Assembly (NCBI GenBank): GCA_963841015.1
Contig: CAWJAX010000003.1
Location: 352,001-416,000, forward strand
Origin: an uncultured Methanoregulaceae archaeon
Lineage (GTDB): Archaea > Halobacteriota > Methanomicrobia > Methanomicrobiales > Methanospirillaceae
Reading direction: 5' to 3'
DNA length: 64,000 nt
Every line of letters starts with the position of its first letter. Within the stretch, counting starts at the first letter, position 1. The position numbers and the translations under genes are program-made. The notes under the pieces were generated by a model. That model was not told the origin of the DNA, made no database searches, and worked only from the letters and a program-made list of their open reading frames with translations. Positions 1 through 2,261 of this stretch are shown here, piece after piece.

Positions 1-108
1 GCGGACGTCCTCTGCCCGGTCAACGACCAGCGCATCCGCTCCGCTCTCGATTGCCGTTGTGGCAATCTCCTTGTTCCATGGCCTGATATCGACCCAGAAC
101 TGTTTCAT
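1..108 (-). CDS. aroB': 3-dehydroquinate synthase II (archaeal type), 5' part only, runs off the window edge
   Basis: Manual translation from ATG at 108: [36 protein letters not shown], matching the DHQ synthase II N-terminus; ATGA overlap with the upstream aldolase stop; expected position after aroA'. Confidence 0.8.
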   Translation of the reverse strand, partial: MKQFWVDIRPWNKEIATTAIESGADALVVDRAEDVR

Positions 109-896
109 TTGTGCTGCTCCAGCGCCTTTGCCGGATCCACGTTGTTATGCACCACATTGCAGAGTGCCTGGACAAACGATTTCGTGTCCTTGCGCTGGAA
201 GGCGTTCCGGCCAACACAGACCCCGGCGCCCCCGCCATTGACCGAGTCCCGGATGATCTGGAGAGACTCGAGGTCGCCGGTCTTCTCGCCGCCGGCAATA
301 AAGACAGGTACCGAGCAGGCTTTCACGATCTTTTTGAACGCCTCAGGGTCATTGGGGTAGTTGGTCTTGATCATGTCAGCGCCAAGCTCCTCAGCTACCC
401 TTACAGCATGCCCGATCGACTGCGCCGAGAAGGAGTCAATCCCCTTGCCCCGCGGGTAACTCATGATAAGGAGCGGCATGCCCCAGCGGTTGCAGTCGCG
501 TGCAACATTGGCACCGATCTCGAGCATCTTGGACTCATTGGGCGAGCCGAGGTTGATGTGAATAGAGACCGCGTCGGCGCCGAGCGCAATCGCTTCTTCA
601 ACCGTGCAGACCTGCACCTTGTCGTTCGGATCCGGGTTGAGCGAGGTACTCCCCGAGAGATGGATGAACAGGCCGATGTCACGGCCGTGCTTCCGGTGCC
701 CGCGCTTGACGAGCCCCTTGTGGAGCACTATCGCGTTTGCACCACCTTCGCTCACGTCCGAGATGACTTTTGTCATATCCAGCAATCCCTCGATCTGTCC
801 CATGGAAAAACCGTGGTCCATCGGTACGATCACTGCTCTTCCCGTGTTCCGGTTTATGATCCGTTCGATCCTGATGTCCTTTCCAATCATCTTCAT
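105..896 (-). CDS. aroA': 2-amino-3,7-dideoxy-D-threo-hept-6-ulosonate synthase / DhnA-type class I aldolase, paralog 2
   Basis: Motifs [34 protein letters not shown] (Schiff-base Lys), AGG, GRNAFQ; adjacent to aroB'. Confidence 0.85.
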
Positions 897-1684
897 TCCT
901 CCAGAATTTTCAGTGCTTCCTCTACGCTCTTGTTTGCATGCACGATACAGGCCGCTGCCCGGACGAACTTAGCCGGGTTCTTGTGCTGGAATGCGTTCCG
1001 GCCAATCGAGATGCCTGCTGCGCCTCCGGCCATCGCGCCTTCTATCAGTTCCAGGGTTGTGCGGTCATCGGTCTTTGAACCTCCGGCCACCACGACCGGT
1101 ACCGGACAGCCCCGGGTGACCTCACGGAAGCTCTCCGGGTCACCGGTATACACGGTCTTGACAATATCAGCCCCGAGCTCTGCTGCTACCCGTGCCGCGA
1201 GTTTCACGTTCTCCGTATCGTTCTCCGCTTTCACCTTCTTTCCCCGAGGGTACATCATGGCAAGGAGCGGCATGCCCCACTCCATGCACTCAACCGCGAC
1301 CACGCCAAAGTCGGCGAGCATCCGGGCCTCCGATTCGGCTCCGATATTCACGTGGATCGAGACCCCGTCCGCACCCATCTTCAGGGCATTCTGTACCGAG
1401 TTCACGAGCACTTTCTCGTTCGGGTCCGGCCCGAGCGAGGTGCTCGCGGACAGGTGCAGGATTAATCCTATGTCCCTCCCACCCTGCCGGTGGCCGTGGA
1501 GCGCGAGCCCCATGTGCCCTATCACGCAGTTCGCCCCGCCGTCCGCAACCAGGTTCACAGTCTGGCCCATATCGATAAGCCCGGGAATCGGCCCGTTCGT
1601 AACCCCGTGGTCCATGGGCACGATGACGGTTTTTTTCGTATTACGGTTCATGATTCGTTCAAGACGGATTTCCTTTCCTCTCAT
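893..1684 (-). CDS. aroA': 2-amino-3,7-dideoxy-D-threo-hept-6-ulosonate synthase / DhnA-type class I aldolase, paralog 1
   Basis: Same motifs ([34 protein letters not shown]); start set at ATG 1684, 11 nt after a GGAGGAG Shine-Dalgarno. Confidence 0.88.
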
Positions 1685-1747
1685 GGTAACAACAACTCCT
1701 CCCCCTGCATTCACACAGATTTTAATTTTTAGTGCAAACCAGAGGGC

Positions 1748-1909
1748 TTACCGGTACCAGAAAAAATACCGGAAATAATAGCTGGAATAAATGCCAAAGT
1801 CGCGATACGCGGACGTACCTGCGTTCACGATTTCAGAAACGGTTGCTTCGATGCAGTGGGCGGGTGAACTAGTTGAGATAAAGACATTCACGGGCAAAAA
1901 AACCCTCAT
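1748..1909 (-). CDS. Putative aromatic-amino-acid-rich leader peptide (53 aa) of the aro operon
   Basis: Manual translation: MRVFLPVNVFISTSSPAHCIEATVSEIVNAGTSAYRDFGIYSSYYFRYFFWYR*; 11 of the last 19 codons are Tyr/Phe/Trp; same strand as, and 63 nt upstream of, aroA'; shorter than the ORF-track cutoff. Confidence 0.75.
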   Translation of the reverse strand: MRVFLPVNVFISTSSPAHCIEATVSEIVNAGTSAYRDFGIYSSYYFRYFFWYR

Positions 1910-1957
1910 GAATGCGGTGGCACTCGTCCTGCATGATCTTTTGTATGATGTGCTTTG

Positions 1958-1964
1958 TATTTAA
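1958..1964 (-). promoter_or_regulatory. Candidate TATA box for the leader-aro transcript
   Basis: TTAAATA on the minus strand about 50 nt upstream of the leader ATG; usual archaeal spacing predicts a start site near 1935. Confidence 0.45.
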
Positions 1965-2261
1965 CTATGTGTGCTACAGTGTAGCACGGTCGAAGTGTGA
2001 ATAAATAGATATGGTTTTTGTCTAAGGACATTGGAAAAAAATTTCAATCTTTTTTTAGGAGAAAATCTAATATGAATAAAACCTACTGAATGAATCAAAG
2101 CGGTCAGACACATGGGATGCATAGGGAAATAAAAAACCTGTGACTTCTCAATATTTCGCACATTTTTTTTCAGAACCGGAATCCATGCTGCAATGAAATT
2201 GAAGACAGGGCCGGTTTCGAATCCGGTTCCGGGTCCACCCCCCACGCATACTCATGAATCC

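Follow-up and report, generated by a model that had tools for sequence, protein, structure and literature searches.

Does a short open reading frame (ORF) packed with aromatic codons in front of an archaeal aromatic amino acid operon act as a leader peptide that senses the end products of the pathway, and if so, which step of expression would it control? The question is raised by a 64,000-nucleotide (nt) stretch of DNA from an uncultured Methanoregulaceae archaeon (assembly GCA_963841015.1, contig CAWJAX010000003.1, positions 352,001 to 416,000), here called the window, in which a 53-codon ORF lies on the minus strand ahead of aroA', the first gene of the operon. Its translation is MRVFLPVNVFISTSSPAHCIEATVSEIVNAGTSAYRDFGIYSSYYFRYFFWYR, with the C-terminal end AYRDFGIYSSYYFRYFFWYR followed directly by the stop codon. 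The last 19 codons include 6 Tyr, 4 Phe and 1 Trp codons, aromatic residues fill 8 of the last 10 positions, and 63 nt separate the stop codon from the aroA' ATG (1684-1682). An earlier reading of the same DNA (the original prediction) had given these residue counts and this distance, and all of them proved correct when re-read from the sequence. Leader-peptide attenuation is a textbook bacterial mechanism that needs translation of a nascent or just-made transcript. We show below that the ORF and its frame are conserved across a class of methanogens, and that a hairpin whose arms co-vary across 27 genera follows it. We lean slightly towards a ribosome-stalling leader that would control access to the Shine-Dalgarno (SD) sequence of aroA'.

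A single locus is unconvincing alone, because T-rich intergenic DNA can yield aromatic tails by accident. We therefore scanned the six frames of the window's own genome for stop-terminated frames with at least 12 open codons (n = 93,693). Only 6 frames carried at least 8 Phe, Tyr or Trp residues in their last 12 codons, and 27 carried at least 7. Among these 27, the leader alone preceded an aromatic-pathway gene; the other 26 had an unrelated ORF or none behind them. Runs of single amino acids in all frame tails of the genome amounted to noise (Lys-, Pro- and Ser-rich ends), and none stood before a cognate operon. The tail is suggestive at this one locus, and the comparative data put the leader beyond chance.

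The comparative set consisted of the aroA' loci of 94 species-level genomes from 31 genera and 6 families, which make up the whole class Methanomicrobia. Of these loci, 93 were usable; L008, with 16 nt of upstream sequence only, was left out. At ten of the 93 loci (L028, L064, L069, L071, L073, L079, L080, L085, L086, and L087), the leader ORF was picked by hand and not by the automatic rule of the most aromatic tail. Species of the same genus are not independent, so that per-locus counts overstate the evidence and counts per genus (31, or 27 in the permutation test described below) are fairer. A short ORF with an aromatic tail was found on the aroA' strand in 93/93 loci and 31/31 genera, with its stop codon 33-230 nt before the ATG. 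At least 5 of the last 12 residues were aromatic in 88 of the 93 loci; when the antisense strand of these 300-nt regions was searched, 3 of 93 loci reached this level. As an outgroup, we took 20 loci of other classes, representing 13 further families of the phylum; none had such an ORF, and the maximum was 4 aromatic residues in 12. Although nucleotide sequences diverge, aromatic-tailed ORFs thus precede the orthologous operon in all genera of the class, as had been expected. The expected range held for the whole class Methanomicrobia and failed for the 20 loci of other classes; a range that includes Methanosarcinales was too wide if, as we assume, the outgroup classes include Methanosarcinales-type lineages. 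Two further contigs, L137 and L174, are labelled as Spirochaetia and Bacteroidales metagenome bins and carry an aroA' that shares 80-90% identity with the Methanoregula gene, which probably reflects erroneous binning.

The tail keeps its composition and not its sequence. The middle of the peptide diverges, the nucleotide sequence is not kept between genera, and within the window's genus the tail varies in length by whole codons (alignment A2). Tails elsewhere in the class read, up to the stop codon, GFFSFYYRFYYWY, AFFGYYRYFFAYFFSFGFWYRF, FYRFFWYF, YRYFNWFSQF, and GFFFRYFYLF. Over the last 15 residues, Phe accounts for 28.8%, Tyr for 21.6%, and Trp for 5.2%; both Phe and Tyr occur in 92/93 tails and Trp in 69/93. 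Leaders range from 36 to about 75 codons and end in TAA (31 loci), TGA (48), or TAG (14). The frame itself is marked in two ways. The last 15 codons hold a mean of 8.34 aromatic codons in frame, compared to 2.98 and 1.78 in the two shifted frames (93 loci). Moreover, the leader frame is open from a repeat element near its start (see below) to its stop codon, a distance of 99-234 nt, in 72/72 loci, and the other two frames are open in 0/72.

These data bear on the explanation that there is no gene here at all, the ORF being a by-product of T-rich promoter, operator or terminator DNA, with a regulator binding the inverted repeat at 1987-1971. T-rich DNA in the right frame does yield Phe and Tyr codons, five other equally aromatic tails in the genome have no related gene behind them, and the inverted repeat abuts the TATA-like box in 31/31 loci of the genus. 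The frame specificity and the always-open frame argue against a by-product, as do the conserved TGG and TAY codons and the antisense and outgroup controls, and an operator and a leader can coexist, so that the repeat is no argument against a leader. We regard this explanation as highly improbable.

The inverted repeat is nonetheless likely a candidate operator for a DNA-binding regulator. With its 7-nt arms, it is present as a single copy in the genome, and the core GCTA-N5-TAGC occurs at the equivalent place in all loci of the window's genus compared to 13 of 5000 random 240-nt windows. Such a regulator would probably add a second, independent control layer. In several outgroup loci, which have no leader, long inverted repeats of the form TGCTA...TAGCA abut the aroA' SD sequence. 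L106 and L107 have perfect arms of 10-14 nt at a distance of 13-15 nt from the aroA' ATG, and L104, L105, L111, and L112 have repeats that look imperfect by eye. The outgroup repeats may act as an operator or form an RNA hairpin, and a relationship to the window's inverted repeat is possible.

The promoter-proximal sequence predicts where the transcript would begin. An A/T-rich octamer lies 28-33 nt before the ATG that opens either an upstream overlapping frame (frame A, see below) or the in-frame leader in 87/93 loci. This spacing is expected where archaeal transcription starts at or beside the ATG, and the position of the TATA-like box therefore predicts a leaderless or nearly leaderless transcript that would start at or next to ATG 1934.

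The leader product is almost invisible to protein annotation. The 53-residue peptide matched 0 families in NCBIfam, and among 5.8 billion predicted proteins a single relative of 29-93 residues was found, a 52-residue "hypothetical protein"; gene callers almost never report this ORF. A search of Rfam 15 returned only three chance-level matches, at 15-16.5 bits compared to gathering scores of 40-62. The same near-absence of relatives weighs on a second explanation, in which the ORF is translated without sensing anything, either as constitutive coupling that unfolds the aroA' ribosome-binding site (RBS) or as the gene of a small aromatic-rich protein. The stop codon does sit right at the base of a hairpin, like those of coupled gene pairs, and an N-terminal block V-N-V-F-S-P-V-N-V-F-I and, in the family, a middle P-A-R-C-I are kept, at the peptide or the nucleotide level. 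Coupling requires no aromatic run, however, and the tail keeps its composition while both its sequence and the length of the ORF vary. The ORF is also linked to aroA' in every case, and nothing close to its repeat element recurs in the genome, where three other, unrelated matches appeared when 4 substitutions were allowed. Translation without sensing is therefore, in our estimate, rather unlikely.

The hairpin lies between the leader and aroA'. Its 5' arm begins 1 nt after the leader stop codon, and its 3' base is the 5' part of the aroA' SD region, with the C-rich arm pairing to the G run. Hairpin statistics were computed for the 82 loci in which the leader ends no more than 90 nt from the ATG, leaving out 11 loci with longer gaps. 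In the minimum-energy fold of the stop-to-ATG segment, the first pair formed 0-7 nt after the stop codon in 82/82 loci. Relative to 100 dinucleotide shuffles, the mean z score was -1.9, and 38 of the 82 segments scored below -2. The arms differ by genus yet remain complementary, as in CCCTCTG/CAGGGGG, CCCTTC/GAAGGG, CCCCG/CGGGG, TCCCATTTT/AAAATGGGA, TCCCGGAA/TTCCGGGA, and CTCAGCAG/CTGCTGAG. In a partner-permutation test with one representative per genus (n = 27), the 18 nt after the stop codon were paired with the 30 nt before the ATG. Cognate duplexes averaged -13.27 kcal/mol compared to -10.49 ± 0.54 kcal/mol for permuted partners, and none of 5000 permutations was as good; the cognate partner ranked in the top three in 9/27 genera. 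In the window's genus, 94.1% of cells were paired, compared to 30-69% with the partners slid.

Other approaches were less informative. Within the window's genus, where there is too little variation, one pair had changed on both sides, and 288/500 shuffles equalled this. Alignment of 43 stop-to-ATG segments of many genera (MAFFT and RNAalifold) gave 0 consensus pairs, owing to poor alignment. A covariance model based on 17 sequences from the window's genus reached 8/44 sources, all of them close relatives or weak matches. When halves were swapped between genera, cognate folds averaged -16.3 compared to -12.4 for swapped ones, a comparison confounded by unequal lengths, and in several genera many foreign halves did equally well. 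A second, small hairpin with eight base pairs and a 6-nt loop was predicted inside the tail of the window's leader, ending at the stop codon and drawing on the CGG (Arg) and TGG (Trp) codons. By eye, alignment A2 shows CCGG, CCAG or CAGG opposite CTGG or CCTG arms in further species of the genus, and this small hairpin may explain the conserved Arg/Gln...Trp spacing.

From this arrangement we infer translation of the leader and every step that would link stalling to expression, as follows. The promoter would give a transcript that starts at or next to ATG 1934, and ribosomes would translate a leader of roughly 50 codons. By default, the hairpin after the leader stop codon would hide the SD sequence, and aroA' would be poorly initiated. 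Under a shortage of charged Phe-, Tyr- or Trp-tRNA, ribosomes would dwell and queue on the last aromatic codons, and the leading edge of the stalled ribosomes would block the base of the hairpin, where the anti-SD and SD strands pair, so that aroA' and the genes translationally coupled to it would be made. With plentiful Phe, Tyr and Trp, ribosomes would finish the leader and leave, and the hairpin would close. We prefer occlusion by stalled ribosomes because in simple coupling models a fast ribosome would favour expression, the opposite of what a biosynthetic operon requires. The geometry is consistent with this proposal. In 81/82 loci, 0-2 codons separate the last aromatic codon from the stop codon, and in 80/82 that codon is 3-10 nt away from the first pair of the hairpin (median 7), a spacing at which a ribosome with that codon in its A site would reach the base of the helix.

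Simulations of ribosome occupancy gave the stalling model modest support. Pairing was forbidden under a 27-nt footprint, footprint sizes being those of bacterial ribosomes. Without a ribosome, the mean unpaired probability of the SD window (-18 to -5) was 0.27-0.32 in the 27 genus representatives. In a local model in which everything 5' of the leading edge was masked, as by a queue, this value rose from 0.32 to 0.42-0.46, and the number of genera with an SD window more than 50% unpaired rose from 2/27 with no ribosome to 9-14/27 with a ribosome at the last codon or the stop codon.

Several observations weigh against a stalling leader that acts on the SD sequence. When the whole leader was left free to fold, masking the footprint lifted the mean unpaired probability of the SD window from 0.27 to no more than 0.32-0.33, and in this full-length model a rise above 0.15 was seen in only 5-6 of 27 genera. 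Full-length ensembles also paired the SD window with other pyrimidine-rich parts of the leader, implying that the local hairpin is not the sole possible sequestor. In the window's genus, the hairpin covers the first two G of GGAGG and ends 16 nt from the ATG, and the duplexes between arm and SD sequence are weak (-4.9 to -7.4 kcal/mol) in genera g14, g15, g17, and g28. The tail is dilute or more internal, with 3-4 aromatic residues in the last 12, in g24, g27, and g30, and the leader ends 105-230 nt from the ATG in g4, g8, and g10 (family f4), in g25 (f6), and in L007 and L011 (g1). In most genera, the promoter-proximal ATG is out of frame with the leader, and ribosomes would enter the leader frame by a shift or at a start codon of its own. 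Contigs from RNA libraries reach 1990-1992, about 56 nt upstream of the predicted start, which may reflect read-through, another start, or DNA carry-over. Finally, leader translation, the transcription start and regulation are all predictions.

Two of the long-gap loci, L007 and L011, belong to the window's genus, very probably Methanoregula, and have about 60 extra nt between the hairpin and the aroA' ATG. The insert resembles a partial duplicate of the old SD and start region in which the ATG has been lost, with a new AAGGAG SD sequence beyond it, and the hairpin at these loci no longer contacts the working SD sequence.

The second part of the question is whether control would fall on transcription or on translation. 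RNAalifold on 30 sequences found no alternative helix pair between the leader and aroA'. There is a single hairpin in this interval, followed by AGGAGTTGTTGTTACC and not by a U run. The lack of a terminator/antiterminator pair, together with a hairpin over the SD sequence, makes control at translation initiation more likely. The original prediction of a ribosome-mediated attenuator stands as far as a conserved leader of end-product codons is concerned; in place of a terminator and antiterminator, there is a hairpin that occludes the SD sequence. To our knowledge, a terminator made of a hairpin plus a U run is not used by archaeal RNA polymerase.

The main rival to a leader that acts on SD access keeps the sensing and moves the output to transcription. 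Here, stalled ribosomes would mask the U-rich tail from FttA/aCPSF1 or from oligo-U termination, and ribosomes that finish fast would expose it, so that RNA polymerase would be stopped before aroA', with a logic like that of tnaC with Rho. The codons of the tail do tend to end in U: TTT makes up 336/466 Phe codons (72%) and TAT 267/326 Tyr codons (82%), compared to 34/69 (49%) and 23/42 (55%) in the genes of the operon, and runs of at least 5 T occur in 56/93 tails. Archaeal termination uses oligo(dT) tracts, and FttA, a Rho-like factor, prefers U-rich nascent RNA, according to PMC13681488. The modest support that simulations give to the steric model also speaks for this rival. The U-ending codons could, however, reflect the A+T bias of weakly constrained positions (the genome has 48% G+C), and masking of FttA leaves the conserved, co-varying SD hairpin unexplained. 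Moreover, contigs from RNA libraries continue through the tail into aroA'. We consider control of termination to be unlikely.

These RNA data are assembled contigs of metatranscriptome runs only, and they show no starts, ends or strand. Contigs of two studies bridge the tail and the start of aroA' (1644-1899, 1649-1818, and 1616-1813), and further contigs span 1786-1903 and 1875-1990. The leader stretch thus occurs in RNA libraries as one piece; DNA carry-over is possible. Positions 2001-2100 were uncovered in three of four RNA runs, which is not evidence of a start.

How would ribosomes enter the leader? The original prediction took ATG 1909 as the start of the ORF. This ATG is probably not the first loading site of ribosomes, as a promoter-proximal ATG lies 25 nt upstream of it and opens frame A, a short ORF that overlaps the start of the leader (frame B) in the -1 register. 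Frame A carries slippery T-rich sites at Phe-Phe (1901-1896) and Leu-Tyr (1883-1878). The same two-frame layout, with the leader in +1, was found in 73/93 loci, where frame A has 15-21 codons and reads M[QRC]G[EG]CFFAGECFYxx before its stop codon. In 14/93 loci (g7, g10, g17, g21, g25, and g27), the first ATG shares the frame of the tail, and the script left 6 loci unassigned. By eye, the frame A stop codon falls 1-4 codons after the Tyr codon, as TAG, TAA or TGA in slightly shifting places, and the frame B serine that overlies the frame A TAG is always encoded by AGY and never by TCN. The retention of this stop through varied codons and the AGY-only serine point to selection on the frame A stop, and both frames look real.

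The overlap coincides with the most conserved nucleotide block of the leader, a tandem repeat of 18-nt units, of which there are two in most genera and three in the window's genus. The repeat element (up to 4 substitutions allowed) was found in 72/93 loci and 22 genera, and its frame invariably agrees with that of the aromatic tail. Only two-frame loci have it; it is missing where the first ATG shares the frame of the tail. The last two units each hold an SD-like GAGGG or GTGA and then YTT-T. The units carry YTT-TTY and YTT-TAY, at which a P-site tRNA could re-pair in +1 with a Phe or Tyr codon in the A site, and ahead of every unit stands GGTGA or GAGGG, which is complementary to the 3' terminus of the genome's own 16S rRNA (...GGATCACCTCCT). 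Separately, RNAalifold proposed a long-range pairing of CUUUAUCUC (1883-1875) with aroA' codons 2-4. Both sides of this pairing are invariant, which makes it untestable, and we set it aside because it fails to explain the loss of the element upon frame fusion.

The two frames could form a two-stage sensor in which a hungry-codon +1 frameshift acts as a regulatory gate. In the first stage, ribosomes would load on the leaderless AUG and read the 15-21 codons of frame A. When Phe- or Tyr-tRNA is scarce, the A site would stand empty and the P-site tRNA would slip by +1 (Y-UUU-UUY, Y-UUU-UAY), and only shifted ribosomes would enter the long frame. In the second stage, these ribosomes would stall again at the tail beside the SD hairpin and open aroA'; unshifted ribosomes would stop about 120 nt upstream (118 nt here), with no effect. 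The TATA-like box keeps its distance to the frame A ATG also in the genus that has one 18-nt unit more than the others. In six genera, the first ATG is fused to the frame of the tail and the repeat element is lost, and in one of these genera, comparison of L080 with L071 places the net loss of one nucleotide at the first slippery site. Initiation inside frame B, at a GTG or ATG of its own, would be a simpler explanation; such a start codon is present in all two-frame loci and accounts equally well for the layout. We hold the frameshift gate to be doubtful. The positions of all elements are collected in Table 1.

Table 1. Elements of the control region and the first genes of the operon, in window coordinates
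Feature	Position	Strand	Details
Control region of the eight-gene aromatic operon	1987-1682	minus	
Inverted repeat GTGCTAC-ACT-GTAGCAC	1971..1987	.	directly upstream of the TATA-like box
TATA-like box TTAAATAC	1957..1964	minus	starts 30 nt upstream of the A of ATG 1934
Frame A short ORF MQDECHRIHEGFFARECLYLN (then stop)	1869..1934	minus	ATG 1934 to TAG 1871-1869; 21 codons
Three tandem 18-nt units	1875..1928	minus	1928-1911, 1910-1893, 1892-1875; most conserved nucleotide block of the leader
Leader ORF (frame B)	1748..1909	minus	ATG 1909 to TAA 1750-1748; 53 codons plus stop; read from sequence
Aromatic tail YRDFGIYSSYYFRYFFWYR	1751..1807	minus	11 Phe/Tyr/Trp in 19 codons
Small hairpin in the tail CCGGTATT / GGTACCGG	1751..1772	minus	minimum free energy and centroid structures
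Sequestor hairpin	1701..1746	minus	5' arm CCCTCTGGTTTGCAC 1746-1732; 3' arm GTGTGAAT.CAGGGGG 1716-1701
SD region of aroA' GGGGGAGGAG	1696..1705	minus	purine-rich; core GGAGG 1702-1698
aroA' (2-amino-3,7-dideoxy-D-threo-hept-6-ulosonate (ADH) synthase)	893..1684	minus	first gene of the operon; TIGR01949, E 2e-106
Second ADH synthase paralogue	105..896	minus	4-nt overlap with the first aroA'

The genes behind the leader fit its codon content. The original prediction placed the ORF ahead of an aroA'-aroA'-aroB' operon, and this was confirmed: the two AroA' paralogues score 355.3 and 347.5 bits against TIGR01949 (cut-off 299.45), and the third gene encodes 3-dehydroquinate (DHQ) synthase II. The ORF in fact heads eight genes. 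Beyond the start of the window, the operon continues on the same strand with DHQ synthase II, tyrA, pheA, 5-enolpyruvylshikimate-3-phosphate (EPSP) synthase, an aroK-aroE fusion, and aroC, and most neighbouring genes overlap by 4 nt. It thus covers the common aromatic pathway and the Tyr and Phe branches, and trpE is located elsewhere in the genome. The inclusion of tyrA and pheA fits a leader dominated by Phe and Tyr codons, usually with one Trp codon.

Similar leaders had also been envisaged at other amino acid operons, and none was found here: no cognate-codon short ORF lies upstream of trpE or of either hisG copy in the window's genome. About 450 nt upstream of trpE (C5), there are repeated ATGCAT motifs (atgcatttaaaaatgcat) with an A+T-rich spacer and no Trp-codon leader; these motifs may be a candidate protein-binding site for tryptophan control. 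Three further observations concern the operon itself. In the genome's own tyrA (prephenate dehydrogenase; C3:350293-351118, minus strand, outside the window), the gene is split into two frames, a 122-residue N-terminal ORF and a 230-residue C-terminal ORF that overlap by about 230 nt, which is either a frameshift or an assembly error. The aroK-aroE fusion (C3:346855-348300) has 481 residues, with shikimate kinase at residues 19-180 and shikimate dehydrogenase at 224-479. A 555-codon open frame on the plus strand (111-1778), opposite the two aroA' genes, is a shadow ORF and not a gene; it is the products of the minus strand that match ADH synthase along their whole length.

Among known systems, the closest is that of the leaderless poly-Cys short ORFs of mycobacteria, in which stalled ribosomes block a structure that sequesters the RBS of the next gene (10.1101/834739). 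As described there, such an ORF lies at the 5' end of an operon transcript, which in our case is probably leaderless, and has its cognate codons at the 3' end; control falls on translation and not on a terminator, as it would here. By contrast, the mycobacterial ORFs are bacterial, sense one amino acid, and lack a second overlapping frame. Moreover, their codon tract itself pairs with the SD sequence; in the archaeal leaders, this role falls to an arm that begins 3-10 nt after the last aromatic codon.

The leader also resembles trpL, pheL, hisL and thrL, as portrayed in PMC1262725 and PMC3082878, in that a run of end-product codons precedes the first biosynthetic gene and composition is kept. 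Unlike the enterobacterial attenuators, it has neither alternative terminator and antiterminator hairpins nor a terminator of the hairpin-plus-U-run type. It is also longer, with 36-75 codons compared to 14-30 codons in enterobacterial leaders, and it combines three amino acids in one tail.

Translational attenuation of ermC and cat is similar in that a ribosome stalled in the leader is thought to open a stem-loop that hides the SD sequence. In those systems, the stall is induced by a drug and depends on the nascent peptide, and a four-segment relay is used, whereas here no relay segment fits in the gap between tail and hairpin. Leader-peptide attenuation of ermC and cat is mentioned in PMC5118997. 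In tnaC with Rho, a ribosome at the end of the leader masks the site of a termination factor, which makes it the template for the FttA alternative; tnaC differs in responding to free tryptophan by way of the nascent peptide and in switching on a catabolic operon. Rho is not known to occur in archaea. For the putative frameshift, the model is prfB, in which the zero frame also ends soon after the site, a P-site tRNA can re-pair in +1 on a slippery CUU-U or UUU-U, and an SD-like stretch lies a few nt upstream. In prfB the slow codon is a stop codon, whereas the slow codons here would be Phe and Tyr codons, slow only under starvation, in a frameshift that is itself hypothetical. The authors of PMC3082878 regarded a +1 shift at the end of pheL as incidental.

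The claim that multi-codon attenuator peptides are not well described in archaea agrees with our searches. Full-text searches yielded bacterial leader-peptide attenuators only and no archaeal one, although supplementary tables of small ORFs (e.g. PMC11456600) may list such ORFs. The word archaea is absent from a 2024 review of microbial upstream ORFs (uORFs), and a Methanosarcina ribosome-profiling (Ribo-seq) paper mentions possible uORFs in general terms. What is new here is the archaeal domain, the tail for three amino acids, the hairpin just past the stop codon, and the overlapping first frame; the logic is like that of bacteria.

If the stalling leader is real, a whole class of methanogens would regulate aromatic amino acid synthesis through ribosome stalling, and one leader would integrate the supply of three amino acids. 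The promoter-proximal overlapping frame with slippery Phe and Tyr sites may represent an instance of regulated frameshifting. Gene callers almost never report this ORF, and comparable leaders of other archaeal operons may have escaped notice. The locus would also provide a natural, conserved and easily mutated test bed for the interplay of archaeal ribosomes with mRNA structure, and perhaps with FttA.

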